This document shows positions 26,086 through 63,976 of a stretch of 63,976 nucleotides of DNA, in pieces. The DNA is from Paraspadella gotoi (taxonomy: Eukaryota; Animalia; Chaetognatha): contig CM119264.1 in assembly GCA_051294375.1 (NCBI GenBank), forward strand, positions 3,604,689 through 3,668,664, given 5' to 3'. Under the pieces are notes generated by a model. That model had not been told where the DNA came from, did not search any database, and saw only the letters and a list, made by a program, of their open reading frames with translations. The position numbers and the translations under genes are program-made. How positions within the stretch are numbered: the first letter of the stretch is position 1; every line of letters starts with the position of its first letter.

Positions 26086-26174
26086 TTTAACTGAAATTTT
26101 TAAACGAAACAACTTGGAAAATGTGTTTAAATAATTGAAATTTTTTTTGCTCGAACATTCTCAAATTTTTTATT

Positions 26175-26477: not shown

Positions 26478-26556
26478 TTTTAATTTGAGTAACAATTTTT
26501 GCTGAATTAAAACTCAATAGCAAAAAAAAACACAACGGGCAAATATACAATACACC

Positions 26557-27288: not shown

Positions 27289-27359
27289 CTGGTTAATGAA
27301 ATATTAACTTTAAACTCAATTGAACGAATTTGTCTCTTTTATTGGATTTATTTGGATTT

Positions 27360-28490: not shown

Positions 28491-28520
28491 TTTTTACAGT
28501 TTTTGCTGTTGACGGCGTTC

Positions 28521-32829: not shown

Positions 32830-33909
32830 TCAGGACGAACTCTGGTCCTGATCAGCTTCTTCTCTATGGAGAGATGCATGATGCCTCTGTCCACATGTCT
32901 GACATCCCATGAGGTTCGAGCAAGCTCTCGCCAAATGGCCGCGTCCGAAACAGAGTCTGCATAAGCCCTTTTCCTTCATCCAGCTCAACCTCTCGTCGAC
33001 GTTCAACTCGAGAAATTTTGAGCACACCCCCGTGAAGTGAATCTTTTCACAAAAATCACACTTTGAATGTCTGGGTCCTCTGGGTGCATGATTGGTTGGG
33101 TCCGAGTTAGGATTTGAAAAACTTCGATTGGCGGCGACGCTTGCTTTATACGCGCGAGTGGTTGTGGCGGCGCGAACGGAAATATGGTTCCTACCGGCTT
33201 CCCCGGACGTCCTCGCGCAGTTGTAATTCGACCCTCCCAATTTTTCTCCCGCTGCTGACCCCTGCTTCATGAGGATGCCCATCGTCTCCTTTGACCTCGT
33301 CACCTCCTTCACTAATTCCAGAAACTCTTCAAATTTTANNNNNNNNNNNNNNNNNNNNNNNNNNNNNNNNNNNNNNNNNNNNNNNNNNNNNNNNNNNNNN
33401 NNNNNNNNNNNNNNNNNNNNNNNNNNNNNNNNNNNNNNNNNNNNNNNNNNNNNNNNNNNNNNNNNNNNNNNNNNNNNNNNNNNNNNNNNNNNNNNNNNNN
33501 NNNNNNNNNNNNNNNNNNNNNNNNNNNNNNNNNNNNNNNNNNNNNNNNNNNNNNNNNNNNNNNNNNNNNNNNNNNNNNNNNNNNNNNNNNNNNNNNNNNN
33601 NNNNNNNNNNNNNNNNNNNNNNNNNNNNNNNNNNNNNNNNNNNNNNNNNNNNNNNNNNNNNNNNNNNNNNNNNNNNNNNNNNNNNNNNNNNNNNNNNNNN
33701 NNNNNNNNNNNNNNNNNNNNNNNNNNNNNNNNNNNNNNNNNNNNNNNNNNNNNNNNNNNNNNNNNNNNNNNNNNNNNNNNNNNNNNNNNNNNNNNNNNNN
33801 NNNNNNNNNNNNNNNNNNNNNNAATCCCTCTCAGTTATCTTCGGCCCTTTCAGAAGTTCCTCCAACATTTGCTGCGCGGTAAAATTTTTTCGTCCGAACT
33901 CAATCTCTA
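32830..33909 (-). CDS. gag: Bel/Pao gag C-terminal part, copy A (gapped)
   Basis: Cx2Cx3Hx4C, Cx2Cx4Hx4C and Cx2Cx3Hx4H knuckles; ends at an in-frame TGA (32830-32832). Confidence 0.9.
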
Positions 33910-36255: not shown

Positions 36256-36613
36256 AGTTAAGAGAGATCGTGACGCCGCGCGATACTTGGCGTCGACGCA
36301 TAAACACTGATCATTTGTTGAATACGTAACTACGAACTAAAAAAAGTTCAGATACGTCTAAGTGAATGCCAGGGATCGCCCGCTGACGAGAAATGAACGA
36401 CAAATGAACATCGGTTTTCTATCACTCCCCGGATGGAGCCTACTTAGTATGTTATTACTTGCAATGAACAATTATTATTTGACATGAACTTACTATTTGC
36501 CTTGAAGGTTCTACTTCACTTCACACTACATATACATCAATTCGTTAATGAACACGGGCTTCATGGAGATAGAAAGTTTTAGCTGAGGCTTATAGCACTT
36601 ACTGTACTTAATA
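36256..36613 (+). repeat. 5' LTR of copy B (~358 bp)
   Basis: Reverse-complement homology to 22463-22826; lies ~810 bp upstream of gag. Confidence 0.8.
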
Positions 36614-37427
36614 TTAAGAACTAAACTGTCTCCTACGGGATTCTATCTAAACTAACTAATTAAAATTAAAATAGCCGAAGCAGCCTGGGACTTGGAGGAC
36701 TTTTGGCTTCCCGAGTTTTTGGGTCCTAAATAAAATCATAACCTTGATCACGTTCTAATTGTGAACAGTTTTGAGGAATTCGGAAAGAAAGTGGGAGCCA
36801 TCGATAAGGGCACCACGGGAGCCGATCTTTTTTTTTTAAAAAACGATTGGGCCGGATCTTTTGTGATCGGGCCCGGTAAGAACGGGCTGGAGCCGAAGCC
36901 GTCGCAAAGTGAGTTTGTGAAAAAAAAAATGCCAGTCGCTGCTCAAGATGGCGACGGATTGAAACTTTGGCCATAAACCCAGCGATTTTTTAATAACATT
37001 AATAATCAAAATGAGAGAGGAGTTAGACGGTTCGCAAAGAATTACAATACGAACTAAACAAATTTGAAAAATTGTACAATAATGCCAAAGTTTCGTCGAG
37101 GTCCAGGCGACCCGACAGGCCGAAGGGGTCCGGGTGACTGTCCGGAGACTGTTCACTGATCTTGCACAATTTTGTTGTCCGCACACATCCTGCACTTGAA
37201 ACCGATCGCGTAAAGTTATTATTAGATGAGGGTCTTGTAAATTCGGTACCGGGCGTATTAAGGGCTTGGTCCCGTTAGTTGTATTTGACGAGGAGTATGA
37301 GGCGTCTGTAGATGAAGGTGTTGAGGAATCTGATGAGAAAATGAAAGCATTGAGGGTACTGTCATTTTGCCGTCCGGTCCGGTTGTTCCCCAAACTATCC
37401 CACCTGTCGATCTTAGAACCCCTCGTC

Positions 37428-39747
37428 ATGAATCGCCGAACGTCAACGTCGAGAGTCGCGTCGAGCATTGGGTTGCAACTTCGGCCGACAGTCTGTACGT
37501 CGCCTAAGATCTACTACGGGCGTCTCCGCGTGTCTAGAGCCATCGAACGTCAGTGTCCGATCGTCCAGGAAGGAGGGCACGTCGGTAACAAAGTCCTCTC
37601 GATCGTCCAAAGAGACGATCAGACAAAGGTTGGTCCTCGATCTAGAGAGAGTTGACGAAGAGCGTTTAGCGATTGAAAAGGCGAGAGAGAAAGATAAAGT
37701 AGAAAAGGAGATTAGAAGATTAAAAGACGAGGCTAAGTTAAGAGAGATGGAAGAAAGTAAGAAAGAAATCGATTACGAATTCAGATTGAAAGCGATTGAA
37801 AGAAATAGAAAAGTGACTAACGAGAGAATCCACAACATTAGTAGAGGTAGTTCAGAAGAGGACCTGTATTCATGCAGATCGGGAGGAGCTCGCTCGGTAA
37901 CGTCGCGCCGAAGTCTCGTGAACGAACGTCGCGTCGACACACGCCCACGCGCCGATCAACACGTCGAAGAACGCCCGCTCGCCGAACGCCACGACGCAGA
38001 ACGCCCTTCCGCCGTCCAACTCGTCAAGGAATCTCCGCCGGATCTCACGGTGCCAAATCCCATCGTCTCTACGGTGAGGGGAGGAAAGGAAAGGGAGGCA
38101 GGACTTAATGAGGACGAATTGTTATTACAACTTGTGAGAAACTTACCTGAGGAAAAGAGGAAGAGTCTTGTTGCTGTATTGCAGTTGCCGCCGCCGGCCG
38201 GCCCGCGTAACATTGCGCCGCAAATCACCGCTTGTCCACCGATTGTTACCACGCCGTCCGTACCGCCACCCGTTCCGATCGCGCCGCCGCCGCGGATAGT
38301 ACCGCCGCCGCCGCCCGTAACATTTTCACCGCCGGTCCCGTTGCCACCGTTGCCGCCGCCTATTTTCATTCCGCCGGTTATACCGCCGCCGCCGATAGTA
38401 ACGCTCGGTTGTTCGTCGCCGTTTTTGTCGATGACGCCGGTGGAGAAATTGACGCCGCCGCCGACGGTTCCGTCGATAATTCAAGCGTCCGTTGCCGAAG
38501 GTGTGTCGAAGCCTGCTGAATGTCCCAGTTGTTATTGTCGAAGTTCGCCGCGCCCGTCGACGCCGTCCGTCGCCGATCTTTCTGTTGAGAATCTAGACGG
38601 GGGAGGGAGGAAAGAAGAGAAAGGAGAAAATATCAAATTAAATCACACACGTGAAGAAGCTCTTACCAACTATGCATTCTGCAAACACAACAACAAGCAC
38701 TGAGCATCATCAGACAAAAGAGGCCTAAATTAAAATTTAGCGGAAAGGATCGTCGAGTCGACTTTGAGTCACAGCTGAATTTATTTGAGTCACTCAGCAA
38801 AGTTGTGGGAGTAACCGACGAGATGTTGATGTCGGAATTAAAGGAGTACTTCGACGGGGATGCAGGGATCATAGTTTCACAACATGAGGCATCGGAAACC
38901 ACACTGAGGCTTTAAAGGAAGCAAAGAGAGGCGTTAGAGATTGAGTTCGGACGAAAAAATTTTACCGCGCAGCAGATGTTAGAGGAACTTCTGAAAGGGC
39001 CGAAGATAACTGAGAGGGATTTCACGGGGGCACGAACGTTTATATTAGAGATGGAAAGGTTTTGAAGAAGAGACAGTTGAGACAAATCGCAGCGTACGTT
39101 TTTCGACACAGTGACAACGTAGCATTGAGATATATGATCAAAAATTCGCATAGATAGCTAATCCGGTTGCCAAGAGAATGACAAGACATGAGTTAGCGAT
39201 TCTGAAAGGGGATGATAGGAAGAGAGGCGATCTCGAATTGAAATTTGAAGAGTTTCTAGAAATAATAAAGGAGGTGACGAGGTCGAAGGAGACGATGGGG
39301 ATCCTCATGAAACAAGGGTCATCGGTGGGAGAAAAAGTGGGTGGGTCAAATTATAGCAGCGCGAGGACGTCCGGGGATGTCAATAGGAACCACATTTCCG
39401 TTCGCGCCGCCACAACCACCCGCACTTCAAAGGCAATCGTCGCCGCCAACCGAAGTTTTTCGAATCCAAACTCAGACCCTACAAATCATGCACCCAGAGG
39501 ACCCAGAAATTCAAAATGTGATTTTTGTGAAAAGATTCACTTCACGGGGGTATGCTCAAAATTTCTCGAGTTGAACGTCGACGAGAGATTGAACTGGATG
39601 AAGGAAAAGGGTTTATGCAGACTTTGTTTCGGACGTGGCCATCTGGCAAGAGCTTGCTCGAACCTCATGGGATGTCAGACATGTGGACAGAGGCATCATG
39701 CTTCTCTCCATAGAGAAGACGCTGATCAGGACCAGAGTTCGTCCTGA
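37428..39747 (+). CDS. gag: Bel/Pao gag, copy B (Ser/Arg-rich N-terminus, coiled coil, Pro-rich segment, three Zn knuckles); frameshifts around 38650-39180
   Basis: ORFs 37468-38703 and 39178-39747; 38930-39020 matches the copy A fragment 33823-33909. Confidence 0.8.
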
Positions 39748-41947
39748 CTGGCTGCAGCATACGTGACGACGGGAGCGTTCCGGCCGATCGTCCCAGTTGT
39801 TGTTAGAAACGGAGAAAAATCGGTCGTCACGTATGCATTATTAGATAGCGGCGCTACTCGATCGGCGATGTCGATGAAATTAGCTAGTGAATTAGACGTC
39901 GCTACTTATGCTGAATTTACTAATTTGACTACTTATGATAAAGTCTCTAGAGCTTGGAGGGATTATGGAGATGTTGAAGTATCGAATTTAGATAATACGT
40001 TTTCCACGGAGATGAGGAAAGTGATGGTCGGAGAAGTCCTCACGACGGAGGCGGACAGACCGACAAGGAATGAAGAGATCGAAGATTATCATTACATGGA
40101 AGGAGTAGAATTTGCTGAATTGGAGGACGACTCGGTGGAGATGATTCTTGATGCGAGACTGGCACATGCATGGGTCGGAGGTGAAGTGAAGAAAGGTCCA
40201 GAAGGTTATCCGGTCGCGTTGAAGACGTTGTTCGGGTGGACGTTAGTAGGGGCAAGTGAAAATGAGAGTGGAGATCACATTAGCTGCTGCTCAACGCCGA
40301 ACGAGCACGAGAAATTGGAGTACATGATCGCGTCGATGTTCCGACATGACTTTATAATGAGAGGGACCGAGAAATATCCATCGGAGGTGCAACATCCGTC
40401 AGCGGAAGATTGCTACGCATTGGAGCAGTTGGAGAAAGAAATTTACTTTAACGAAAAGACTGGGCACTATGTTGCGCCGTCGCCGTGGAAGAAAGGGAGG
40501 GAAGAGACCGCTAAGTTTTTCGAAACGGTCAAGGATGACGTAATAAAGAATGCGGAGAGCAGAGCAAGAAAATTGGCGAACAAGATGCGGAAAGATCCGG
40601 CGCTGAAGGAAGGGGTGTTCAAGACGATGAAGGAGACGATCGAATCGGGCCACGCTAGAAAAGCTGTAGTTGACCATCCGCCGCCGGGTAATCCAGAATG
40701 TTTCGCGCCATTACTCGTAGTTACGAGACCAGACAAGCCGGGGAAGTTCAGAATTTGCCAAGACGCAGCATCCAAAGTGAACGGGAACGCACTAAACGAC
40801 CATCTGATTGGGGGGCCGGACAACTTAACTCCGCTGATCGGCATGCTGTTGAAGTTCCGACGAAAGAGATACACGATTTCTGCTGACATAAAAGGCTTTT
40901 TCCATCAAGTAGAGTTGCACCCGAAAGACGTAGCTGCATTTAGATACCATTGGTATACGGACGAGTCAATGAAGACGTTGGAGGTCCACGAGCCACTGGT
41001 CCATGTGTTCGGAGGAGCCGGAAGCCCAGGAGTTGCTACATTTGTGCTGCAGTACCATGGGAAAAGGTTGAGCTTCACTGGAGAATTTTCGCCTGAGGTC
41101 ATAATCGCATTTTTCATTAAAGTATATGTTGACGATTATCTTGACGCATTGGATGGAATCAAAGACGCCCGAAAGATGAGGCTGGACATGACGGAAGCCA
41201 TGAGAAGAGGGGGATTCGAGTTGACCAAGTGGCAGGCATCTCACCCACGAATACTGATAGACGAAGCCGGAGAAGATGAAGATGACAAAGAGTTGGAAAA
41301 GGAAAATGTTGACGAAGGTCTGGAAGAAGAATTGGAAGATAATCTTGAAGGGTTAGCCGGAAATGCATTGCCCGAAGATCCAACGATGGAGGAACATGAT
41401 TCAAAAGTCTTGGGGACAGGCTATAATTCGAAACGAGATGTGTTTTTCGTCCGCGTAACAGAAAAATCGAAGAAGGAAGCAAAAACGAGGAGAGACGTTT
41501 TGAAGTTGGTCGCGTCAGTTTTTGACCCGCTGGGGTTGGTGGCGCCGTTTGTACTGAAGGGACGGAGCATCTTTCAAAGGGTGGTGATGGAAGGAATAGA
41601 CTGGGACGAAAAGTTGTCCGACGAGCTGTTTGAGGCGTTTGACAAATGGAGGAAAAAGATGCACTTCTTAAAGAAAATTAGAATCCCGCGATGGACGAGT
41701 ATTGTCGGGTTAGATTGCGTGAAGACGACGTTGATTGTGTTCTGTGATGCAAGTTGTGAAGGCTACGGGGTGGCGATATACATAAAGAAAGAAAACAAAG
41801 GAAGTGAAAAGAGTCATGTGACGCTTCTTTTCGCGAAAGCTCATGTTGTTCCGGTCAAGATGCAAGAGAAGATTATCATTGAAGACCAGTTGGATCACGG
41901 AGATTCGATGCCGAGGTTAGAGTTGAATGCGGCAAGATTGGCGGCGC
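39748..41947 (+). CDS. pol: Bel/Pao pol (protease, RT, start of RNase H), copy B, truncated by gap
   Basis: Same motifs as copy A; in frame with gag across a single TGA. Confidence 0.95.
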
Positions 41948-44717: not shown

Positions 44718-45728
44718 GTCAAAAGAATTTGAAAGTCCCAACGCCGCAGAAGATGGCAGAGCATCCCGAGTTTCGCGTGAATGAAGCAATTCCGTTCGAA
44801 GTCACAGGTCTTGATTGTTTCGGGCCATTCCAGGTGAAACACGCCGGGCGGGGACTAAATAAAAAGAACGTCGTCATATTCACATGTCTAACAACCCGTG
44901 CAGTAACATTCGAAATATTGAGAGATATGACAGCTCAATCGATGCTCAGTGCTTTAATAAGATTCAAAAATGTTTATCCAGGAGTACGGACACTTGTATC
45001 GGACAACGGCACCAACCTCGTGGGCGCCAACAACGAGATCGAGAGGCAACTTCATCAACTTCAAAAGGACGACAAAGTCAACGAAGGAATCGCCGCAAAG
45101 GGCATCACCTGGATATTCGGACCACCAAATGCTCCACATTGCGGAGGTGCGTGGGAGAGGTTGATCAGAGAAACGAAGAAGCACCTCAACGCCGTCATGC
45201 CCGCTGAATTAGACGTCGACACATTCTCGACAATACTAAGTGAAGTAGCAGGTATATTATATATCGCCGACCATGTGACGTTTGAAATCATCTGATCCTA
45301 TTAAAAAGGTGAAGGTGGCAACTGTCACAATCGAAGCTTTTTATTACCCGCATACTTATTTACATCTACTTCAATTAGACATATTTACCGATAACGCCAG
45401 GGCTGCGGAGATACATATCGAAAATGGCGGCTGTGGAGACAAGTGAGCGACGTTAGCCGACGCATTCTGGACAAAGATGGCATTCTGAATACTTGATCTC
45501 TTTAACAGCGAGAGGACAAAATGGCGAAAGTCGGCGGAAAACCTGAAGGACGGCCAAGTTGTCATGCTCGTCGAACCGAACGCTCCTCGAGATCAATGGA
45601 AGACGGGCCGCGTCGTCGAGATAAAAGGAGACGGCCCTTTGAAGAGAGAAGCAGTCGTCCGGCTCGCCGACGGAAGAACTTTTCGACGCCATCATAACGC
45701 ATTGGTTCAACTGGAGTTGGAGCAGTGA
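44718..45728 (+). CDS. Integrase core and C-terminus, copy B (frameshifted after ~45260)
   Basis: PFEVTGLDCFGP, SDNGTNLVGA, PHCGGAWERLIR (DDE core). Confidence 0.9.
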
Positions 45729-45761
45729 GAACGTCGTCAAGAGAAAAAACTGTAAAAAAAG

Positions 45762-48700
45762 TTTTCCTGTATCAAGTTCGTAACGGTATACTTTAAAGCC
45801 TTTGGCCAAGATCCATCTGGTTAAATGAAATATTAACTTTAAACTCAATTGAGAACGAATTTGCTCTTTTTAATGGATTTATTTGAATTTTTTAATTCAA
45901 CATTTCGTGCAAAGTTTTCAAAGTCTTTCTCTGCTTCGTCAATCCTCCTTTTATTTCTCTCTCTTATCATTTCAAGATCTCTTCCTTTCTGGGTGCTGCT
46001 TTTCGCGGCTTTTGGTGATGTCTTCCTTTATCTGGTGCAGCTCTCTGATTTTTTTCTCCATGTCGGAAGCAGCTTTTTCCGGTTTCTCTTTTTTCTCCCT
46101 GTCTTTCTCTGCTTTCTTTTCTTTCAGCTTTAACTCCCTTTCGCAAAGAACGAGATCGTATACTTTTCTTTTCTTTTCTCCTTCTTTCTCCCCCGCTATT
46201 GTCTCCCATCTTCTTTCGGATTTTCCTTCCATTCTTCTCAGAAGTTTTTTGCCAATTATAACTGAATACATGAACATAATAAACTATAATACTTTTTTAA
46301 TATGTCTATTAACAGTTAACGTTTCGAGCTAGCATTCTTTCTCCTTTCAACTAGTCTCTTGGTTTCTATCCTGATCTTTTCGCGTTCCTCGTCGTTACCG
46401 GATCTACTTTATCAGTTTCTTTGTTGGCTGGTTCCGCGATTTTCTTCGGTATCGTTTCGTTTTCTGCTGTTGTTAACGTTGTTGTAATTGCTGCTGCTGC
46501 TGTAGTTGCTTCTGCTGTTGTAGCTATGCTGCTGTGGTCGCTGCTGCTGCTGTAGCTGCTTCTGCTTTGTAGCTGCTTCTGCTGTTTTGTGCTTCAAATT
46601 CGGATTTTCTTTGTTTCTTTTTTGCAATGAGTTTTCTTGGTCTCGTCGTCATATTCCTCCTCTGGATTCTGTAGATCTTTTTGTATACCGTTTCGTCATC
46701 GTCTTCTGGCATTGGCGAGGGATGTAGATGCCTTTTAATTCTTTCGTCAACTCCGACATCATCTTTCTTCTCCTTCTTACTGAGTCTAGATACAAAGTTC
46801 ATCTCGATGGCTGGAGCATATTCCCATGATTGGATTGGCGTCGACCTCCTCCCACAATCCTTCATCAATTGTCCATTGATGATCTTAGTTGTTTTTCAAA
46901 ACAACTCTTCACAAATTGTTCGATATTCATTGTCCTGTTTTCCTCTAATGTCGAAAATGGATTTCGTATTAATGTTATCTACTTTATTGTTCATTTGTTT
47001 CTACTCAATTTTTTGTTTCTCATTTCTTTAAACTATTTTATTTTGAAACGAGTTTATTTTTTTTTTACAGTTTTTTCTTTCTGACGGCGTTCTCACATCG
47101 CTCCAACTCCAGTTGACACCATGCTGTTATTGATGCGTCGAAAAGTTCTTCCGTCGGCGAGCCGAGCGACTGCTTCTCTTCTTCAAAGGGCCGTCTCCTT
47201 TATTCTCGACGACGCGCGCCCGTCCTTCCCATTGTCTCGGGCGCTGTTCGGTTCGACAGCATGACACTTGGCCGTCCTTCAGGTTTTCCCGCCGACTTTC
47301 GCATTTTGTCCTCTCCTGTAAAGAGATCAAGTATTCAGAGTATGCCATCTTTTCCAGAATGCGTCGGCTACGTCTCTCACTTGTCTCCAAGCCGCCTTCA
47401 TACAGTCACCCTCTGCAAGCTGCTATATGTAATAATGTTAATGAAGTAGATGTGAATAAGTATGGGTATAAAAAAGTTTCGATGGTGACGTTGCCACTTA
47501 CACTTTTAGGTCAGATGATTCAAACGTCAATGGTCGCGGGTTTAATATACCTGCTACTTCCTTAGTATTGTCGAGAATGTGTCGACTCTAATTCAGGTGG
47601 CATGACGGCTTGAGGTGCTTCTTCGTTTCTCTGATCAACCTCTCCCACGCACCTCCGCAATGTGGAGCATTTGGGTGGTACCGAATATCCAGGTGATGCC
47701 CTTGCGGCGATTCCTTCGTTGACTTTGTCGCCTTTTGAAGTTGATGAAGTTGCCTCTCGATCTCGTTGTTTGGCGCCCCACGAGGTTGGTGCCTGTCTCG
47801 ATACAAGTGTCCGTACTCTCGGATAAACATTTTTGAATCTTATTAAAAAGCTGAGCATCGATTGAGCAGTCATATCTCTCAATATTTCGAATGTTACTGC
47901 AGCGGAGACATAGTGAATATGACGACGTTCTTTTTTTTAGTCCCCGCCGCGCGTTTTCACACTGGAATGGCCCGAAAACAATCAAGACCTGTGACTTCGA
48001 ATGGATTGCTTCTATTCACCGGAAACTCGGATGCTCGGCCATTCTTCTCGGCGCGTTGGGACTTTCAAATTCTTTTGACACTTCAAGCACCGCGGCGGAG
48101 ATCTCTACGGCTGGTCTTCCTCCCAATAAGGTGAATCTCTGTCTGAGCGAATGGATGATAGCGCGATGCGCAGCCGATGGGATTAAGTTAGTGTCATGTC
48201 GAAATTAGTGACTCTACACATTTCGTCGATCTCTTTTGGCAATATATATTGGGTGTTTGTGTGGATTTATGGTGGCGCTTTTCGAATTTCCCAGCCTCCA
48301 CCAGTTCTCATGAGCCCTTCCTCATCTCATAAAAGGACCTTAACGCGACAATTCTCGAGTTTCTATGTGTCTCACTCTCTGTGATAGATTCGGCGTCATC
48401 ACCCCAGTTTCACAACTCAAAGAGATCCTTTTCGAAATCTTTTCTGGTGAGTATATTTTACTTTTTTTTTAACTCGTGTTCCGTTTTCATAAGCTTTCCA
48501 CTTCGAATTACTTTCTCTTTCCTCTCTTCTCTTTCGATTCTCTCTCATTACCTCTTCTCTGCATAATTAGCTTTTGTAATAATTCCTTCTCATCTTTTTT
48601 CGCCCAACTCCACGTTCTCAAGTAATTTTATATCACCCAGCTTTTTCCTCACCCATCCTGCTTTGATGTATCACGGCCACGCTTTGAAGCAATACGAATC

Positions 48701-48850: not shown

Positions 48851-50914
48851 GCCTATCTGTGTTGCCTATCTGTTTATTTGTGTGCAAGCGGGCGTGTCTT
48901 ATGATACTAGCGCGCTGTGCAGCCTNNNNNNNNNNNNNNNNNNNNNNNNNGGAAATGGAAAGAAGGGCACGAATTATGGAAAAAGGGTAATTACCAAGAG
49001 TCCATCAATCTCACACGAAAATTAATACTCCCTGAAGTTGAAATAGACGAAGCAGAGAAACGACATGCAGAACTCGAAGAAGAGGAGACAGAACCAGAAA
49101 AAGCCTTAGAAATAGCTAAAGAAAAGAAGGAAAGCCTGAAACGAAGAAAACTGGAAGGGATGGAGATTTACGAGACTGAAAAAAAGTATGTAAATTCGTG
49201 GATTTATACTGAAATCTTAACTCAAACAGAAATAGAAAAAACCGAGATAGATCGAAAGATTGAAANNNNNNNNNNNNNNNNNNNNNNNNNNNNNNNNNNN
49301 NNNNNNNNNNNNNNNNNNNNNNNNNNNNNNNNNNNNNNNNNNNNNNNNNNNNNNNNNNNNNNNNNTGAGCATAACTCGGAGACACTGTCGCGTTTAAGAT
49401 TCCATTTATTAGCTAGATGAGGAAGGGGCTCATTGAGAACTGGTGTGCTGGAGGCTGACGGTACAACCTTCCGAGACACAAGGGCACGATACATTACACA
49501 ACACAAAACACCAAGTCAATATTGTGCCCCACAATTAGATGACGATAAGTCAGGGTAGATCACTCAATTCGAAATCCAGAACAACATTAATCTATACCAT
49601 TCTAGTTCGCGCTATGCGCTACATTTCCATTCGCTCGACAGAGAGATTCACCTTGTTGGGAGGAAGACCAGCCTGTAAGGAGAAGACGTTCGCGCTCGGT
49701 AGCTCTGAAGTGTCAAAAGAATTTTGAAAGTCCAACGACCTGCAGCAAAAGATGGCGATGCATCCGAGTTTCGCGGAACGAAGCATTCCGTTTCGAAGTC
49801 ACAGGTCTTGATTGGTTTCGGGCATTTCCAAGGTGAAACTCGCCAGGGCGGGGACTAATCAAAAGAACGTTCGTCAATATTCACATGTCTACAACTCGTG
49901 CAGTAAACATTCTGAAAATATTGAGAGATTGACGGAGTCATAATCGATGCTCAGTGCTTTACATACAGATTTAAAAATGTTTGTCCAGGAGTACGGCACT
50001 TTGTATCGGACAACGGCACCACCTCGTGGGCGCCAAACAACGAGATCGAGAAGGAACTTCCACCAATTCAACAAGGCAGCGAACTAAAGTTCAACGAAGG
50101 AATCGCGCGCCAAAGGCATTACCTGGATATTGCCGGACCAGCCAAATGCTCCCAGCATGCGGATGGTGCGTGGCGAGAAGGTTGACAGAGAAACGAGAAG
50201 CACCTCACGCCGTCATGCACCGCGAATTAGACGTCGACACATTCTCCAGAAATACTAAGGGAACGTCAGCAGGTATTAATCTTGTCCACCGACCATTGAA
50301 CGTTTGAAATCATTGACCCTAAAAGTGAAATTGCACTGATCTCAACCATTCGAACATTTTTATACCAACTTATTCACATCTACTTCATTAAATTACCTAC
50401 CATAGCAGTGCAGAGGGTGGACTGATGAAGGCGGGCTTTGGAGACAAGTGAGAGACGGTAGCCGACGCGTTCTGGAAAGAATGGCAACCCTGAATATTTG
50501 AATCTCTTTACAGGAACGGACAAGATGGCGGAAAGTCGGCGAAAACCTGAAAGACGGCCAAGTTGTCATGCTCGTCGAACCGAACGCTCCTCAGAGAATC
50601 AATGGAAGACGGGCCGCGTCGTGCTGAGATAGAAAGGAGACGGCCCTTTGAAGAGAGAAGCCAGTCGCCGGTTCGCCGGGAAAGAATTTTCGACGACCAT
50701 TCATAAACGCACCTGGTTCAACCTGGAGTTGTGAGCAGGTGAGAACCGTCGTCAGAGAAAGAAACTGTAAATAAAAAAAATGAAAAAACTCGTTCAAATA
50801 AATAGTTTAAAGATATGAGAAACAAAAAAAAATTTGAGTAGAAACGAATGAACAATAAAGTCAGATTAACATTAATACGAAAACCATTTTCGAAAATTAG
50901 AGAAAAACAGAGAA

Positions 50915-51538
50915 ATGAATATTGAACAATTCGTTGATGAAGAGTTGTTATTGAAAGACCAACTAAGATCATCAATGGACAAAATGATGGGAGTGTTGTG
51001 GGAGGAGGTCGACGCCATCCAATCATGGGAATATGCTCCAGCCATCGAGATGAACTTTGTACTAGACTCAGTAAGAAGGAGAAGAAAGATGATGTCGGAG
51101 TTGACGAAAGAATTAAAAGGCATCTACATCCCTCCGCCAATGCCAGAAGACGATGACGAAACGGTATACAAAAAGATCTACAGAATCCCAGAGGAGGAAT
51201 ATGACGACGAGACCAAGAAACTCATTGCAAAAAGAAAACAAAGAAAATCCGAATTTGAAGCACAAACAGCAGAAGCAGCTACAATAGCAGAAGCAGCTAC
51301 AGCAGCAGCAGCGACCACAGCAGCATCAGCTACAACAGCAGAAGCAACTACAGCAGCAGCAGCAATTACAACAACGTTAACAACAGCAGAAAACGAAACG
51401 ATACCGAAGAAAATCGCGGAACCAGCCAACAAAGAAACTGATAAAGTAGATCCCGGTAACGACGAGGAACGCGAAAAGATCAGGATGAGAAACAAGAGAC
51501 TAGTTGAAAGGAGAAAGAATGCTAGCTCGAAACGTTAA
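50915..51538 (+). CDS. Accessory ORF A (>=207 aa; acidic, Ala/Thr repeat tract, basic C-terminus); true start may be ~50780
   Basis: Intact ORF directly downstream of the integrase stop; homologues in two other copies. Confidence 0.65.
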   Translation: MNIEQFVDEELLLKDQLRSSMDKMMGVLWEEVDAIQSWEYAPAIEMNFVLDSVRRRRKMMSELTKELKGIYIPPPMPEDDDETVYKKIYRIPEEEYDDETKKLIAKRKQRKSEFEAQTAEAATIAEAATAAAATTAASATTAEATTAAAAITTTLTTAENETIPKKIAEPANKETDKVDPGNDEEREKIRMRNKRLVERRKNASSKR

Positions 51539-51597
51539 CTGTTAATAGACATATAAAAAAGTATTATAGTTTATTATGTTCATGTATTCAGTTAATA

Positions 51598-51957
51598 ATG
51601 GCAAAAAACTTCGATGAAGAATGGAAGGAAATCGAAAGAAGATGGGAGACAATAGCGGGGGAGAAAGAAGGAGAAAAGAAAAGAAAAGTATACGATCTCG
51701 TTCTTTGCGAAAGGGAGTTAAAGCTGAAAGAAAAGAAAGCAGAGAAAGACAGGGAGAAAAAAGAGAAACCGGAAAAAGCTGCTTCCGACATGGAGAAAAA
51801 AATCAGAGAGCTGCACCAGATAAAGGAAGACATCACCAAAGCCGAAAAGCAGCACCCAGAAAGGAAAGAGATCTTTGAAATGATAAGAGAGAGAAATAAA
51901 AGGAGGATTGACGAAGCAGAGAAAGACTTGAAAACTTTGCACGAAATGTTGAATTAA
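51598..51957 (+). CDS. Accessory ORF B (119 aa, E/K-rich coiled coil)
   Basis: Intact ORF with ATG 6 nt after a tattcag acceptor; homologues in two other copies. Confidence 0.65.
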   Translation: MAKNFDEEWKEIERRWETIAGEKEGEKKRKVYDLVLCERELKLKEKKAEKDREKKEKPEKAASDMEKKIRELHQIKEDITKAEKQHPERKEIFEMIRERNKRRIDEAEKDLKTLHEMLN

Positions 51958-52029
51958 AAATTCAAATAAATCCATTAAAAAGAGACAAATTCGTTCAATT
52001 GAGTTTAAAGTTAATATTTCATTAACCAG

Positions 52030-53455
52030 ATGGATCTGGCCAAAGGCTTTAAAGATAAAACGTACGAACTTGACAGGAAATGGAAAGAAGGGCACGAATT
52101 ATGGAAAAAGGGTATTACCAAGAGTCCATCAATCTCACACGAAAATTAATACTCCCTGAAGTTGAAATAGACGAAGCAGAGAAACGACATGCAGAAACCA
52201 AGAAGAGGAGACAGAACCAGAAAAAGCCTTAGAAAAGCTAAAGAAAGAAGGAAAGCCTGAAACGAAGAAAACTGGAAGGGATGGAGATTTACGAGACTGA
52301 AAAAAAGTATGTAAATTCGTGGATCTTATACTGAAATCTTAACTCAAACAGAAAAGAAAAAAGAGATGATAAAGATTGAAAATCTGAGAGAAAGGTAAGA
52401 CTATCTTCTGAGAAAGAGAGGTGAAACTTTCGTTATTGTTTGTTTAGTGAATTGAAAAGTTTAGAGAAGAAAACACGAAATGGTGTTTGAGGCAGACTGC
52501 ACTCCACAGACAGTTGAAGACGCCATGAGAATGAAAAACTCGTACGAAAACTTCATTAAAAAACAAATCGAAAAAATACAATCACGAGAGAAAAAAATAA
52601 AAGTTAGAAGCCGATGCATAAACGAACAAAGAAACTACTATGAACGCTGGATAAAAGTTAGATATGCGCAAGAACGCATCTTTTCTCAATTTCAAAAAGC
52701 GATGAGAAACCACACACAAAGAAAAAAAATACAAATAAGGCGGAATGAATTAATTATTGTATTATATTTTCCCTTGTTTTTTTTATTAGTATTGATTCAG
52801 AAAAATTGTCTACTCAAATTAAAATGAGCAAGTCCGAACTTTCCGTCAAGAAGTAAAAAGTCCAGAGTCTTCCGAATCCAGGAAAGAGCAAAGTTCCGAA
52901 GGGTCGCCAGACAACCTCGAGACGCGTTGGAGAAAAGAGGAGGCAACAAAGAGGATCTCGAATCATGGAGTTTCAAGTATGTTGCCATGGGTTTCAGCTA
53001 GACGAGGAAATTAAAGAGACCAGTGGAGATCGAGCACCTGAGCAGACTAGCTGACGTCCTGGAAGGGAAGGAAAGATTTCTCGACGCTGACAAAAAATGT
53101 TGAAATGCACTTAAATAAAAATTTAGAATGTTCGATCGAATGTTAATTATTTAAACATATTTCAAGTTGTTGTTTAAACTTCCAGTTAAAATGGACGTTT
53201 GCCAGATAGCAGTACAGTTCGGGCGCTTCGGTATCCTCGTCAAAGAAGTCGCGACGAAACTCGGTGGATTCAAACCGGCCGAGCATCCAGATGAACGACG
53301 AGTTACGAAGATGCAAAGGCAAGAGAAAAAATAAAAACGATAAGTTCGAAAAAACTTTTCTTAGAAATATAGAGGGCGAGCAGCAAACAAAAGACCGCAG
53401 AAAAATCCGAACAAAATTGATCTTGAGAATTCGAGTAAAAAGACTAGATATATAA
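52030..53455 (+). pseudogene. Accessory ORFs C (52030-~52753), D (52824-~53115) and E (53191-~53455), copy B, with indels
   Basis: Colinear homology with the copy A ORFs. Confidence 0.6.
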
Positions 53456-53771
53456 CTATATATAGCTAAATAAACAATTCATTTGACTAGATAACTAATT
53501 AAATTATAAAAATTTACTAAGCCGTACCAGCTATCCACGTCGACGCGTTCCAGATAAAAGAAATCCGGGAAGGAAAACCAGATTCGAGTTTGAAAAGTTA
53601 AAGATTTGACTTAATTTGATGCATTAATATTTCTCACTGTACTTGCATGAATGAAAAAAGAAATTCGAAATAGCTAACACAAATTAAATATTCGATTGTA
53701 TTGTTATTACAGGAAAAATAGCTGATAAAATATCATCAAACATTCAATAAACATTCAAAATAAATCCAAAG

Positions 53772-54980
53772 ATGGAATCCCATTCCGATATTAACTTAGA
53801 TTCTGTGATGTGGACACCTTCAATACAGGAAAGGGAGGAGCTCTTCGGGATCTTTCCATTTGCTCGCGATCTCGAAGAATTCGGTACCACAAACGAAATC
53901 GAGACCATCTCCATTGCGACGTCGGCCTCTATTGAAGAAGTTGCGGCACCAACGAACAAGGAGCCAACGCCGGAAGACGATGAAGACTTTGCATCACGCT
54001 TCCTCAATAAAAAGGCGACGCTGCCACCGCACCGACGAGCTCTGATAGACTTTTCTGTAAAAATCATCATAGACAGCGGCGACGAGCCATATTTCAAGTA
54101 CGACTTCAAGGTCACGAAGGAGACAAAGGTGATGGTGAGGCGGATCAAAAGAACATGGAAGAAAGCCGCCAAGATTCGGGGGTGGACGGACGCCGAATTT
54201 GATGATTTGATTAAAGCGATCAACTTCGGGGTAAACCTAGAAACGTTGAGAATGATGTCCATTCTCATCCGATCAAGTCATCAAACTCAACCGCCATTGG
54301 AGTCCTTGTCGGAGGAAAGAACATCGACGCCGTCAACGAGCTCGGCGGCGACATCCACCCGTGTGGTAGTTTTTGACAAAACGGGCCCGGCCGTCGATTA
54401 CGCGACAGCGACCACCGGACACTCTGGAGCTGTCGAAACAAGATTATCAGCAGCTTCTCAAACAGATGTCGACGGCCGCCGCTGGACCCAACTCGAAGAG
54501 AGGAATCGCCGGCAGCATCAGGAGTTGCTGAGAGCAGAAGTGGAGAAGGCCGACCTCCGAGTCAAGATCGAGAGGCTCGAGCAAGACCTAAAGAAAGAAA
54601 CAGAACGCAGGATCCAGGCCGAGGTGAAATTGGAGGGGCGTGTACGAGAAGTAGAACAGCGCCGTGCGACCACAGAGCGGCTCTGGTCTCAGACATGTGG
54701 CCGCATGTACGAGAAGATTGAAGCAATGTCATCTTCTCACCCGCGACCGCCAACATCTCCAGAACAGAATCAATGGCCACAGTTGGATCTTCGCCTGGCA
54801 GCATTTCGACCGCCCATTGGAATGGAGCAATTTGTACGCTCACCACCGCAGTCCCGACCTAATCCTGCACCAAAGAGAAAAATCCCCACTTTACAGCCGG
54901 TGTCACCGCCGCCTCCTCCCCCTCCAAGAAAAAATTACCCGGACTGGGCCAAACGGGCGACGAAGAAAAGGTCGTCTTAA
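53772..54980 (+). CDS. Accessory ORF F (402 aa; coiled coil, poly-Pro, basic C-terminus; no signal peptide or TM)
   Basis: Long intact ORF; the protein is conserved with copy A while third codon positions differ. Confidence 0.85.
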   Translation: MESHSDINLDSVMWTPSIQEREELFGIFPFARDLEEFGTTNEIETISIATSASIEEVAAPTNKEPTPEDDEDFASRFLNKKATLPPHRRALIDFSVKIIIDSGDEPYFKYDFKVTKETKVMVRRIKRTWKKAAKIRGWTDAEFDDLIKAINFGVNLETLRMMSILIRSSHQTQPPLESLSEERTSTPSTSSAATSTRVVVFDKTGPAVDYATATTGHSGAVETRLSAASQTDVDGRRWTQLEERNRRQHQELLRAEVEKADLRVKIERLEQDLKKETERRIQAEVKLEGRVREVEQRRATTERLWSQTCGRMYEKIEAMSSSHPRPPTSPEQNQWPQLDLRLAAFRPPIGMEQFVRSPPQSRPNPAPKRKIPTLQPVSPPPPPPPRKNYPDWAKRATKKRSS

Positions 54981-57293
54981 ACTTTAAGCTTGAACTGTCG
55001 GCGCCGATGGAGTGATTGCCTGGGTCGACACCTCCAGAGCCGACCGCCAAACCCACGCCGGTGTGTCATATGGCCTGGAGGCATGTGCCTTTATTTATTG
55101 ATAATGTATTTAAATTGCCCGGTACAATGACCAACTACAATAATGACGGGAGAAATAATTAAAGAATGAATCACTGGAAAAAAGAAAANNNNNNNNNNNN
55201 NNNNNNNNNNNNNNNNNNNNNNNNNNNNNNNNNNNNNNNNNNNNNNNNNNNNNNNNNNNNNNNNNNNNNNNNNNNNNNNNNNNNNNNNTGTGACGAAAAA
55301 AAGGACGGAACATAAATGAAATAAGGGAAAGAGGAAAGGCACAAATCGCGGATGGAGGTAGAAACAAAGAGAGGAACAAAGGCGGAGGAAATAGAAAGGC
55401 AAGGCGAAAGCGATAATCGCGGGAATGAGGTGAAAAGGCAAGAGATGGAAAAAGGAGGGAAAAAATCGAGCACTGGAAAAGCAAAAGGAGGAAATCATAT
55501 CGGGAAAAAGAGGTGCAAGATAGATTAAAGGGAGGAACCGAGGAAGAAAAAAAGGAGACTCGAGGGAGAAATTTACAGACGTACTGAAGAAAAAGGAGAC
55601 GCTAGAAAAGAAGTTTTAAAAATTAAAAAATAAAGATAAATGACATAAATTATGAAAAAACTCGTAATTAAACTTAGCTAGCATAAGGAAAAAAAAAACT
55701 CCCGAGGAGGATTTGAAATGCGTCAAAGCATTGAGTGACGAAGAAAGGCAAAACGTCGAGGTCCGATGCCAATCCAGAAGTTCCGCAGGCCAGAGTCAGA
55801 ATGGGGGGGGAAGGACAGGAAGAGAGGCCTCGCGCGTGGGGCAAAAAGAGGGACCTGCGACGGCAGGAGGAAGCACTCGAGCAGGTGAGGGGCAAAAGAG
55901 ACAGGGGGCTGGGAGGTGGCAGTAGAGAGAGGCGGATGGGCAAAAGAGCGGGAGCTGGGGGGACTTGAAGGAGAGAGAGGGGTGGGCCAAGAAGAGGGGC
56001 TGGGGTTGGGGCAGGATATGGAGAGCGGCGATGAGCAGGTGGCAACCCTAATACGGAGCGGGAGCTGGGGGGATCGGGACAAGGAAGAAACCGTCTCACT
56101 TCTTTCGCCGGATTGCGAAGGCAGAAAGCCAGTCCGCCGGTCGAAGCTGATGACTTAACCGCATCAGAAGGGACACGGAATGCCGACAAAAAAAAAAGTA
56201 ACTTCGGCGAACAAAGAATACAAGAAAAGGAAAAGGAGGACTTGAAAAGAAAAAAAGACTTCGTGAAGAGAGAACAAGACAATAACGGAAGGCACAAAGG
56301 GGAACAAAAAGAAAGTTAGAAAAATGATATCTGTAAGCAAAGAAGGGAAGATCAGAAAAGAGAAGAGAAATCTCTTCTCTCTCATCTTCCTCCTCGCTCT
56401 CTCTCTCTCTCTCTCTCCTCTCTCTTACTCTCTCTCTCTCATCTCTCCGCTCTCTCATCCCTCTCCTCTCTCTCTACTTTCTACCATTGTCTCGTCTTCA
56501 ATTAGTTGCCTTAATTAATCCATTTCACTCGAACGAAAGGGCGAAACCGGAAGTGTCGATCACGAGAGGCGTGCCTCGCCGGGGGTCCGAAAGTGGGGGG
56601 GGGGCAGAGGAAATAAGCAAAAAAAGGGCAGGCCCGACACTGAAAAACGTCAAAACTAAATTAAGCGAAATTGGCACGCTTTTTTTTTTCTTTTTCGTGT
56701 GTGTGTGTGTCATTGGTTTGGCGAAAAAGAGAGAGAGATAGAGAGAGAAGAGATGCAGAGAAGAGAAGGATGAGAGAGCAGAGAAGACGAGAGAGAGAGA
56801 GAGAGAGGGCGGGATTTCTTAACGAAAGAGGAAAAAAATGAAAGGAGCCGTCGGCTCCAGCACAAAGTTGCAGGACAGAATTAATGGAATAGTTTTCGAA
56901 GTTTTGAGATGAAGGCTATGCACAATCACTACGACCTCTTCCATTATTAATAAATTCTTCCGTTCTTCTCGATTTCGAATTGAAGCGGTTGGAGAGGGCG
57001 TGGCAAGGGGGGGCGAAATAGACAAATTACAAAGAAACCAGACTCCACAAAAAAAAACAAAGAAAAACAACCGACACACACAGCGCAGAATCTACACACA
57101 CACAGACGCTCAGCGCGAACAAAAAAATTCAAATTTTAAAAAAAAAGTCTTACGAACAAAAGGCAGTCTTTCTCCTTCTTTCCAGGGCGGCAGCGGATGG
57201 CAAATATCTAGCATGGCTCGACGGAAACAAAGGCAATGAGGCATGACGGAGCACGCAAACACCCTCTACTCCTCTCCTCTCTCTCTCCTCTCT

Positions 57294-61839: not shown

Positions 61840-62650
61840 CATTAAGATACAGTGAAGTTGCTATTAGCCTCAAAGCTACAAACTTTCTATCTCACATGAA
61901 GCCCGTGATCATAACGAATTGATGTATTTTCTGTACCGTCCGACCTGTTTGTGTGAAGATGGAATGTTTTGTTACAGATCCTTCAAAGGCAAATAGTAAG
62001 TTCCATGTCAAATAATCATACAATTCCTGCAAGAATAACATACTAAGTAGGCTCCATCCGCGGGATGTGTAAGAAAAACCGATGTTCATCCTCTTCGTTT
62101 CATCTCTCGTTCACTCTCTCGTCAGCCGGGCGATCCCTGGCGTTCACTTAGACCTGTTACTGAGTTTCTACCTCCCCGTAACGCTTACGTCACTTCAACA
62201 AAAGATGCAGTGTTATACGTCGACGCCAAATATCGCGCGCGTGACGATCTCTCTTAACACTCCCCATCCATGCGTAATCGTGCAAACGGACCATACAATA
62301 CCTAGAGAGATCGTGCGCACCGCTGTACTTCGCCCTGTGGCAGTAGACTTTGTTACTGCAAACTGGATTCTATCCCCCTCTCTTGAAGAGTCACCGGCCC
62401 CTCTTGACGGTCCCATTGAGGTATCCGCTCCGATGTAAGATCAGCAACAACCCTCTCCCACCAGTGGCGTCCTGAAAGGCGCCGCCCCTTTGGAACAGCA
62501 TGGCGTCACCCGGCGTTGCACGGCATCACCTCCGGCCGACTTCAAGGCATCGTTGTCCTGCGACGCACCGTTGACCGTCTTGTCGATGACCATGATAGCC
62601 GCCGCCGGCGTCGCCTCCTCAAGTTTTTTCATTTCCCGGCTTGGCTCTCA
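61840..62650 (-). mobile_element. Copy C 3' end: LTR (~61840-62259), purine tract and ORF G (62441-62632)
   Basis: Direct homology to 22463-23210. Confidence 0.85.
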
Positions 62651-62679: not shown

Positions 62680-63976
62680 TTTAGACGCCGCGTAAAGACT
62701 TCAATTTAAACTCGAATTGACTTCGTTCGGCACCACGCTCCGTATGGAGTTGATCTTGCTGCGGCCGGACGGCACCTCCAGAGCGACCGCCCAAACCCAC
62801 GACCGGGACGTGGTGTCGTATGGCCTGGAGGCATGTTCCTTTATTTATTTGTTAATGTATTTATTTGCCCGGTACCATGGACAACGACGATAATGAAGGG
62901 AAAAAATAAAGGAATGGATAAGTCACTGGAAAAAAAAAAATTTTTTTTGGGGAAATTGAGGCACGGAAATTATTTAACGAACGAGTTAACGAACAACTTT
63001 AATTAAATTAATTAAACAACGAAAAGAAAACACGACGGGAAAAACATTAAAAAAAAATATTAAAAAAAAAAAAAAAAATTCCAAGTTATGTTAATCGAGA
63101 NNNNNNNNNNNNNNNNNNNNNNNNNNNNNNNNNNNNNNNNNNNNNNNNNNNNNNNNNNNNNNNNNNNNNNNNNNNNNNNNNNNNNNNNNNNNNNNNNNNN
63201 NNNNNNNNNNNNNNNNNNNNNNNNNNNNNNNNNNNNNNNNNNNNNNNNNNNNNNNNNNNNNNNNNNNNNNNNNNNNNNNNNNNNNNNNNNNNNNNNNNNN
63301 NNNNNNNNNNNNNNNNNNNNNNNNNNNNNNNNNNNNNNNNNNNNNNNNNNNNNNNNNNNNNNNNNNNNNNNNNNNNNNNNNNNNNNNNNNNNNNNNNNNN
63401 NNNNNNNNNNNNNNNNNNNNNNNNNNNNNNNNNNNNNNNNNNNNNNNNNNNNNNNNNNNNNNNNNNNNNNNNNNNNNNNNNNNNNNNNNNNNNNNNNNNN
63501 NNNNNNNNNNNNNNNNNNNNNNNNNNNNNNNNNNNNNNNNNNNNNNNNNNNNNNNNNNNNNNNNNNNNNNNNNNNNNNNNNNNNNNNNNNNNNNNNNNNN
63601 NNNNNNNNNNNNNNNNNNNNNNNNNNNNNNNNNNNNNNNNNNNNNNNNNNNNNNNNNNNNNNNNNNNNNNNNNNNNNNNNNNNNNNNNNNNNNNNNNNNN
63701 NNNNNNNNNNNNNNNNNNNNNNNNNNNNNNNNNNNNNNNNNNNNNNNNNNNNNNNNNNNNNNNNNNNNNNNNNNNNNNNNNNNNNNNNNNNNNNNNNNNN
63801 NNNNNNNNNNNNNNNNNNNNNNNNNNNNNNNNNNNNNNNNNNNNNNNNNNNNNNNNNNNNNNNNNNNNNNNNNNNNNNNNNNNNNCCAGAGACGCTCCGT
63901 TGTCGCACGACGCTGTTCCACTTCCTGGACTCGTCCCTCCAACCTGACTTCAGCCTGAATTCTGCGCTCCGTCTCT
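62680..63976. mobile_element. Further family fragments: F-G spacer on + strand (62680-63100) and ORF F on - strand (63886-63976)
   Basis: Homology to 23210-24390 (lacking the MITE) and to 24690-24780. Confidence 0.8.

Follow-up and report, generated by a model that had tools for sequence, protein, structure and literature searches.

Acceptor-like sites before accessory ORFs of a chaetognath BEL/Pao retrotransposon: candidates for spliced-leader trans-splicing

As a rule an LTR element can support a single extra gene, since each additional one needs a capped mRNA while the full-length RNA has to stay whole. In the genome of Paraspadella gotoi, the 63,976-nucleotide window analyzed here (contig CM119264.1, 3,604,689 to 3,668,664; coordinates below count from its first letter) contains an element with an accessory cassette of six small ORFs (A–F) between integrase and 3′ LTR, raising the question of how so many reading frames are expressed. 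A sequence-only reading had placed a conserved 3′ splice acceptor before each of ORFs B–F, and proposed a polycistron resolved by spliced-leader (SL) trans-splicing, alternative splicing from a common leader donor, or ordinary introns.

The element belongs to the BEL/Pao group of LTR retrotransposons. A three-knuckle Gag and a YVDD reverse transcriptase (RT) are defining traits of BEL/Pao, and direct reading of the ORFs at 39178–39747, 32830–33282 and 29791–32709 reveals a gag with three Cys/His knuckles and the RT motif YVDD. In Pfam, the pol ORFs match the Pao peptidase A17 region (PF05380, E 1e-31 to 1e-35) and RVT_1 (PF00078, E 4e-5). The pol ORF of cassette-bearing copy A (RT and A17 region) occupies 29791–32709 on the minus strand (PF05380 E 7.8e-35, PF00078 E 3.8e-5), and a further copy on the plus strand (37747–41947) contains gag pieces, with the three knuckles at 39178–39747, and pol (PF05380 E 2.4e-31). 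The degenerate integrase end of pol, directly 5′ of the cassette (49626–50735, plus strand), matches 44718–45760, a separate piece; the ORF there has a sub-threshold Pfam match to rve (E 0.002). Besides the cassette at 51–55 kb, the window holds cassette copy A (24151–28738, minus strand; two blastn pieces, 84.6% and 76.5%) and a third, partial copy consisting of the integrase end, A, B and the start of C (45763–48155, minus strand; 87.5%). Repeat comparison shows an LTR-like repeat of ~360 bp at 22463–22826 (minus strand), with further copies at 36257–36613 (plus) and about 61841–62260 (minus); two of the three, including the first, open with TGTT after a purine run. No clear primer-binding site was seen beside these repeats in the window, which is gapped and holds no complete element copy, and Rfam gave no match across it.

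The accessory ORFs, all on the plus strand, are short and charged. ORF A (50915–51538; 207 aa, acidic, with an Ala/Thr repeat), intact in the copy at 51–55 kb, and ORF B (51598–51957; 119 aa, Lys/Glu-rich) match no Pfam family at cut-off. Copy comparison shows ORF C (52030–52750, end approximate) to be frameshifted in both copies. ORF D (52824–53110; about 100 aa), which has neither a Pfam match nor a usable Atlas match, and ORF E (53191–53469; 80–90 aa) are broken here and open in copy A (26477–26175 and 26085–25843, respectively). ORF F (53772–54980; 402 aa) has a Pro-rich end and a predicted long helix at residues 230–320, the one part for which its structure model (pLDDT 54.6) is confident. 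Its best Atlas match (0.85) is unnamed, none of 7053 candidates gave a hit, and a HMMER alignment to a Myb-repeat protein (E 4.6e-4, 26 residues) was rejected as chance. No credible homologue was found for any accessory protein tested, no Pfam fusogen family of an env-type glycoprotein occurs in the six pieces scanned, and no long hydrophobic stretch is evident by eye in the accessory translations. The cassette likely encodes small helical proteins acting as regulators or particle factors, not an envelope.

ORFs D and F are under purifying selection. Between copies, dN/dS is 0.20 for D (p 1e-4, 66 codons) and 0.06 for F (dS about 1.95, dN 0.11, 343 codons); for E it is 0.51 and non-significant (p 0.19). 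D and F therefore need a route to translation. In both copies, every ORF retains a start codon of its own. ORF C probably contains a true intron (52395–52459, plus strand), judging from the pattern AAG/GTAAGA...AAG over 65 nt, which in copy A reads AAG/GTGAGA...TAAG over 68 nt; in the 10 codons 3′ of it there are four synonymous and no replacement changes, and none of the six cassette joints in the RNA contigs corresponds to it. An alternative C start at ATG 52480 was rejected, as the coding signal extends upstream. For a candidate intron in ORF E (53435–53521), the donor is indistinct in copy A and selection behind it is non-significant (p 0.32).

The five acceptor-like AGs lie exactly where they had been reported, ending at 51591, 52029, 52800, 53185 and 53712, and at distances of 6, 0, 23, 5 and 59 nt from the ATGs of B, C, D, E and F, respectively. 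No ATG intervenes in any of the five, F included, and all five AGs are CAG. The C site touches its start codon (AG/ATG), and no 5′ UTR remains for C behind the AG. Between AG and ATG, no in-frame stop interrupts B, C, D or E; F has such stops there in both copies. ORF A has a CAG 4–5 nt 5′ of its ATG in three copies, without a T-rich tract.

Are these sites more than chance? Scored with an acceptor model derived from 12 host introns confirmed by RNA (13 for later scoring, including that of copy A), the B (51562–51591), C (52000–52029), D (52771–52800), E (53156–53185) and F (53683–53712) sites, all on the plus strand, rank 3, 7, 2, 5 and 4 of 390 cassette AGs, rank 1 falling to a second candidate before D, TAG 52789. 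Their counterparts in copy A between them take ranks 1, 3, 4, 7 and 9 of 362. The five score 3.4–15.8; in a pol control, the best of 191 AGs reaches 3.4. The 30 nt 5′ of the sites are 43–67% T (96th to 99.6th percentile) on a strand with 20% T overall, and T replaces A solely upstream of the sites on this strongly A-rich strand. The score mainly tracks T-richness, as the T-rich antisense strand reaches 21. Dinucleotide shuffles within the spacers, with limits (59–178 nt) set by the analyst, gave p = 0.008, 0.38, 0.004, 0.14 and 0.007 for B, C, D, E and F, the best site of the C–D spacer being TAG 52789 and not 52800; combined by Fisher's method p = 8e-5, with C and E each non-significant alone. 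CAG at 5/5 sites compares with 88 of 391 cassette AGs, a post hoc observation. By sequence, the five sites look like real host-type acceptors.

The earlier claim that all five are retained in diverged copy A is right as to presence (27705, 27289, 26502, 26091 and 25555), and the B and C sites recur in the third copy near 46 kb, so that both occur in 3/3 copies. As evidence of function the retention says less. The conservation argument is weak because identity to copy A is high all along the spacers of B (94%) and C (96%); in addition, six substitutions fall in the 106 nt that end shortly after the F site, inter-copy divergence climbing just 3′ of that site. Diverged spacers occur only at D (80% identical), where the CAG is kept and TAG 52789 lost, and at E (78%), where TTCCAG at 53185 reads TTTCAG in copy A.

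The RNA evidence comes from one run, in the form of contigs, recognized as RNA by its removed host introns. None of the 6/6 cassette joints falls at the five AGs, nor does any of the 13 loose ends listed among 31 in the cassette. RNA contigs pass unspliced through 52029, 52800 and 53712, whereas host introns are removed in the same run; likewise, none of the six cassette joints is GT..AG, as against 13 introns among the 15 host joints listed. Two joints span the D site (52728 to 52821 or 52847) and most likely reflect divergent copies. The lack of joints at the five AGs argues against ordinary introns, and contigs cannot show a 5′ leader. The blank is otherwise weak, because contigs lose minor variants and short leaders. 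Moreover, cassette coverage in this run could derive from DNA of the multi-copy element, and a contig joining two genes, as over the three cassette spacers bridged, does not prove a single transcript.

On the plus strand, five host genes follow one another head to tail in the 1–9 kb interval, and the host junction at 2791–2832 had been read as an SL trans-splicing site. There, the stop of a 161-aa ORF at 2812 is followed 8 nt later by CAG 2820 (and CAG 2825) and by the ATG of VPS25 at 2832 (PF05871, E 5e-22). A host RNA contig (1853–6682) lacks all six introns yet keeps the spacers, with 2820 unspliced; 2820 is therefore not an ordinary intron end. Acceptor-like sites precede 4/4 downstream host genes (scores 6.7–14.9, best per search region). 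No leader was seen at 2820 among the 10 loose ends listed of 142 in the RNA contigs. SL addition at 2820, and SL trans-splicing in this host, is thus a prediction.

Collectively, one mRNA per accessory ORF is the likeliest reading, as the sites are host-like and two of the ORFs are under selection. To this extent the earlier proposal is supported, and its intron option is disfavoured; between its SL and leader-donor versions, we tentatively favour SL trans-splicing, at somewhat below an even chance. A single LTR-driven transcript, made from one promoter, would span the cassette; the T-rich tracts with CAG would act as splice acceptors; the host's spliced leader would be joined there, yielding one capped mRNA per ORF; and partial use of the sites would let full-length RNA survive for reverse transcription. 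Each such mRNA could end by polyadenylation within the following spacer, or else extend to the 3′ LTR so that the mRNAs nest. In line with this, the cassette has a same-strand, short-spacer layout with an acceptor-like site before each downstream ORF, weak at A, and stops separate F from the upstream frames in both copies. Very short junctions are described in trans-spliced operons of chaetognaths and Ciona (PMC2481426, PMC2760879). Counting against SL trans-splicing are the leader unseen in RNA, ORF A without a T-rich acceptor, donor-like motifs in the element leader, and AATAAA that is not enriched (3/6 cassette spacers vs 1.5 expected, p 0.14), three such sites being kept in copy A.

The same sites could instead be AT-rich spacer by-products that are never spliced, the ORFs being translated through internal promoters, re-initiation or leaky scanning. 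This we consider somewhat unlikely. The unspliced contigs, the dominance of T content in the score, the background-level conservation of B, C and F, and an ORF A intact without a good acceptor all speak for it; against it stand the T-tract-then-CAG order that exceeds in-spacer shuffles, the uniform CAG, the confinement of T-for-A replacement to the stretches 5′ of the sites and the limited weight of the RNA blank. Six promoters in spacers of 59–180 nt, or re-initiation over six ORFs, would also be unusual. Alternative cis-splicing from one 5′-leader donor, giving nested mRNAs with a shared end in the 3′ LTR in the manner of complex retroviruses, is unlikely in our view. Two strong donor-like motifs, GTAAGA at 36876 and GTGAGT at 36909 (36876–36914, plus strand), do lie between LTR-like repeat and gag, and the lack of significant internal poly(A) signals suits 3′-coterminal mRNAs. 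Lone extra ORFs of LTR elements usually come from spliced messages (PMC5408684), and Cer1 uses cis-splicing besides SL1 (PMC3315495). However, this leader is known from one noisy copy, with ~0.6 GTRAG motifs expected per 330 nt by rough estimate; no leader-derived loose end is among the 13 listed; and the leader-to-cassette introns required, about 7–11 kb as estimated from copies, contrast with the 13 observed host introns of 60–488 nt.

Ordinary introns, in some spacers or in all, would turn the ORFs into exons of one longer gene or of two; this appears quite improbable. Candidate routes stand, from C to D through the copy A donor and from A to B through GTAAGA at 51071; the stretches before B, C, D and E are open, the spacers have lengths like host introns, and the element probably has a true intron inside C. 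Yet every upstream ORF terminates at a stop of its own ahead of the spacer, stops in both copies shut F off, and the cassette joints lack the GT..AG form of the host's. The in-frame C–D join through GAA/gtgaat suggested earlier finds its donor in copy A but no GT in the copy at 51–55 kb.

SL trans-splicing giving one mRNA per ORF, if true, would make the host machinery a multi-gene expression system and show how virus-like accessory sets can grow in retroelements of trans-splicing hosts. The cassette would also offer a small system in which to study what decides whether an unpaired acceptor is cis-spliced, trans-spliced or skipped. A broader proposal, possible but doubtful, is an element-built operon in which host SL machinery yields five or six accessory mRNAs from one transcript, entire genes such as F, acceptor through stop, are exchanged as modules among family members, and a large environmental clade of relatives 10–12 kb long may share the design. 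Even if cis-splicing applies, our literature search found no BEL/Pao element combining six accessory genes with multiple acceptors of the retroviral kind. Among 264 relatives at E <= 1e-30, PF05380 is present in 118 of the 120 listed. Related loci number 79 in metagenomes, five, all distant, in prokaryote genomes and none in viral contigs. Only one metagenome locus is close (L001, 42%), and it ends 146 bp past pol; a short-ORF run between pol and LTR occurs in none of the 33 loci with longer 3′ flanks examined of 84, and all four distant loci with more than 3 kb from pol to LTR carry one ORF of 784–1044 aa.

How does the cassette compare with known systems? Complex retroviruses (lentivirus, foamy virus) carry several short 3′ accessory ORFs with an acceptor before each, a layout that the cassette resembles; they differ in element family, in having env, and in cis-splicing from a major donor, for which the cassette has a candidate only. 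BEL/Pao elements with a 3′ extra ORF (roo; mosquito elements with a chuvirus-like glycoprotein) share the Pao A17 gag-pol and coding room between integrase and 3′ LTR, but their known extra is one large env-like ORF (PMC13524379), in contrast to the six short, soluble-looking ORFs without family match in the cassette. Burro/GYPSM1 of planarians and the bdelloid ORF3 elements are likewise invertebrate LTR elements with accessory ORFs, some coiled-coil; they are Gypsy-like, and the available portions of the reports describe no acceptor-per-ORF layout (PMC6431247, PMC5408684), the string "trans-splic" being absent from PMC6431247 by word search. SL-resolved animal operons of chaetognaths (PMC2481426, PMC12460157) and Ciona (PMC2760879) also have same-strand genes less than 250 bp apart with an acceptor opening the downstream genes; there the genes belong to the host and SL reads have been mapped to them, whereas the cassette, with candidate sites, sits in a retroelement that must also keep uncut RNA. 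Cer1, a Ty3/gypsy element of C. elegans, is also an LTR element in a trans-splicing host; its subgenomic RNA is SL1 trans-spliced, and its genome-length 8 kb RNA must bypass, and does skip, consensus sites (PMC3315495). In Cer1, a single SL site lies close to the 5′ end, and the one spliced RNA, of 2.4 kb, serves one protein (PMC3315495); in the BEL/Pao cassette, each of five or six candidate sites precedes a different 3′ ORF.

By its sequence, the Paraspadella gotoi element belongs to the BEL/Pao LTR retrotransposons and measures ~13 kb (a sum over partial copies), with a cassette of six ORFs, A-F, behind the integrase (50915-54980, plus strand). Evidence for this comes from two Pol ORFs (29791-32709 and 39868-41940) with matches to Pao peptidase A17 (E 1e-35 and 1e-31) and RVT_1, from three Cys/His knuckles in Gag, and from a ~360 bp repeat that occurs three times in the window. 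The integrase piece gives a weak rve match. In copy A, a diverged cassette copy (24151-28738, minus strand), the repeat opens with TGTT, is preceded by a purine run and lies ~1.5 kb behind ORF F. Copy A also contains an ~800 bp stretch with inverted ends (CATCACGCATAAAACGGGGTA; 23340-24130), likely a MITE insertion, which is missing from the copy at 62681-63100. GC-rich stretches of ~370 bp, 300 bp of them identical between both, precede the LTR-like repeat at 22830-23200 and 62260-62650 (both minus strand) and contain, by eye, a 63-codon ORF; a tandem array of ~41-bp units with G runs lies at 17088-17400. The first 78 of 120 listed Pol relatives, with identities up to 46-47%, derive from assemblies of ENA, JGI and Logan, and contigs of 10.2-12.4 kb carry 8 of the first 47 listed and likewise several cluster members. 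Relatives P0001-P0047 form a large clade of environmental BEL/Pao Pol proteins, often on 10-12 kb contigs. Among related loci (84 fetched, nearly all distant), a repeat pair is present in 22 of the 33 examined, and all four of these 33 with a pol-LTR gap of >3 kb carry one ORF of 784-1044 aa and no cassette.

The AGs preceding ORFs B-F, whose positions the sequence-only reading had given exactly, are real and acceptor-like as far as sequence can tell. On direct reading of the plus strand, they end at 51591 (6 nt to the ATG of ORF B), 52029 (AG|ATG, 0 nt, leaving ORF C no UTR of its own), 52800 (23 nt to ORF D), 53185 (5 nt to ORF E) and 53712 (59 nt to ORF F), each within a CAG and with no ATG intervening before the start. 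An acceptor model trained on a small set of 12 RNA-supported host introns ranks the B, C, D, E and F sites 3, 7, 2, 5 and 4 among 390 AGs (50700-54980), and their copy A counterparts 7, 9, 1, 4 and 3 among 362; in a pol control of 191 AGs, the top score, 3.4, equals that of the weakest of the five sites. Dinucleotide-preserving shuffles of each spacer between neighbouring ORFs, within limits of our choosing, yield p = 0.008 (B), 0.38 (C), 0.004 (D), 0.14 (E) and 0.007 (F), combined p = 8e-5. The score mainly tracks T content, and the antisense strand scores higher than the strand of the five sites. Between ORFs C and D, a TAG at 52789 scores above the CAG at 52800, but copy A retains the CAG alone. 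ORF A lacks a T-tract, though in three copies a CAG stands 4-5 nt ahead of its start codon.

Retention of the sites in copy A had been offered as an argument for all five. It stands for the D and E sites, the only ones in diverged spacers (80% and 78% identity), and carries little weight for the B, C and F sites, whose surroundings are near-identical (B spacer 94% throughout, C spacer 96%, and 6 substitutions across the 106 nt that end shortly beyond the F site); aligned in this way, conservation is weaker evidence than first claimed. Many inter-copy differences appear to be small indels typical of noisy long reads, and the window contains ten N gaps.

Purifying selection acts on both ORF F (dS ~1.95, dN 0.11, 343 codons) and ORF D (dN/dS 0.20, p = 1e-4), and does so in no frame but the annotated one; ORF A, ORF E and the latter half of ORF C show a trend in this direction without significance. 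The two copies retain a separate ATG for every ORF. In this copy, frameshifts break ORFs C, D and E, of which D and E are uninterrupted in copy A. Because in-frame stops lie between AG and ATG in both copies, ORF F is not readable in frame as a downstream exon. No Pfam family reached cut-off in the six cassette pieces scanned, further homology searches with F and D found no credible homologue, and the model of ORF F predicts one 90-residue helix, the remainder at low confidence.

Positions 52395-52459 in ORF C (plus strand, 65 nt) are probably a real intron; they and their copy A counterpart (26921-26854, minus strand, 68 nt) share AAG|GTRAGA, and the ten codons behind differ between copies by four synonymous and no replacement changes. 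This intron was not found among X1 contigs (assembled from one RNA run); alternatively, the frame may run straight through, with errors common to both copies. A possible second intron of 87 nt (53435-53610 region, plus strand) ends in TAAG at 53521, with an unclear donor in copy A, and would lengthen ORF E by ~29 codons. ORF F looks to have been exchanged as a unit, acceptor to stop, because inter-copy identity falls from ~92% to ~76% just past the F acceptor and returns to ~90% past the F stop, while dS stays as low as 0.08-0.14 in ORFs A, C and E. Comparison of ORF F at 53713-54990 with 25555-24380 and 63886-63976 reveals two lineages, near-saturated at synonymous sites, that coexist within elements otherwise 90% identical and switch between acceptor and ATG. 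Speculatively, a divergent family member might have contributed ORF F through a template switch onto its processed F mRNA.

X1 is the only RNA run containing the cassette (0.47 of words). Its contigs cover 29 of 30 cassette bins, which for a multi-copy element is not proof of transcription, and one matches this copy's ORF F at 1231/1232 bases. Over 1-12000, 13 of the 15 listed joints, where a contig skips DNA (23 in total), correspond to introns 60-488 nt long with GT..AG or GC..AG ends. Host introns do show up as joints, which makes it unlikely that the cassette spacers are efficiently spliced out as ordinary introns: none of the six cassette joints is GT..AG or ends at any of the five AGs. 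The suggestion that some spacers are ordinary introns thus fared poorly, and we regard it as very unlikely. Unspliced contigs bridge 52029, 52800 and 53712; two joints of unassigned content span the D site and probably derive from copies like copy A. None of the 13 listed loose (unaligned) contig ends (31 in total) lies behind any of the five AGs; contigs lose minor variants and cannot reveal transcript starts, and are therefore uninformative on addition of a spliced leader (SL) or element leader.

In the host, five genes including VPS25 lie head to tail within 1-9 kb (plus strand). The cluster (1-9400) comprises a gene end that we take to resemble PP2A B56 (no Pfam match on the one exon tested), a 161-aa ORF, VPS25, an intronless membrane-protein-like ORF (to 6667) and a gene from ~7092, and a minus-strand gene converges on it. 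In the main RNA path, the AG at 2820 does not close an intron, because a single X1 contig spanning 1853-6682 lacks six introns and retains the intergenic spacers, and this AG sits 8 nt past the stop of the 161-aa ORF, with the ATG of VPS25 following 11 nt later. Such a layout fits the almost spacer-free operons described for a chaetognath and Ciona (PMC2481426, PMC2760879). No leader was found at 2820 among the 10 listed loose ends (142 in total). One host gene has an RNA-supported GC-AG intron (9409-9521, minus strand); of 11 plus-strand host donors, 9 combine an AG directly ahead of the GT with weak positions +3 to +6. A repeat within a host intron (7600-8000; run depth near 40,000; no Rfam match) is probably a high-copy SINE or MITE.

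A capped eukaryotic mRNA yields mainly its first ORF. With ORFs in fourth and sixth place under selection, these would therefore need 5' ends of their own, and we consider it fairly probable that the acceptors are used to make one mRNA per ORF; that they go unused is unlikely. Such mRNAs may arise by SL trans-splicing at these sites, a route we favour tentatively, because the host gene layout is operon-like, the C site is AG|ATG without a UTR, and an intron from leader to cassette would need 7-11 kb, compared with the short host introns observed. The same length requirement weighs against cis-splicing from a donor-like motif between the LTR-like repeat and gag, which we find quite unlikely, despite GTAAGA at 36876 and GTGAGT at 36909 in the single leader copy and a lack of AATAAA enrichment in spacers (3/6, p = 0.14).

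Older work on nematode Cer elements reportedly proposed spliced accessory exons. In the mostly open-access, partly accessible literature compared (including PMC12460157, PMC6431247, PMC3315495, PMC2481426, PMC5408684, PMC13524379 and PMC2760879), a scope that does not establish absence, we found no LTR element whose multi-gene cassette is resolved by SL trans-splicing, and no BEL/Pao element in which every accessory ORF has an acceptor of its own. By either splicing route, SL addition or a leader donor, the acceptors would be partly skipped, thereby keeping genome-length RNA. Partial skipping would fit the unspliced contigs and the precedent of Cer1, in which splice sites are partly skipped to the same effect (PMC3315495). 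Genome-length RNA of Cer1 must bypass splice sites, as would be required of this BEL/Pao element.
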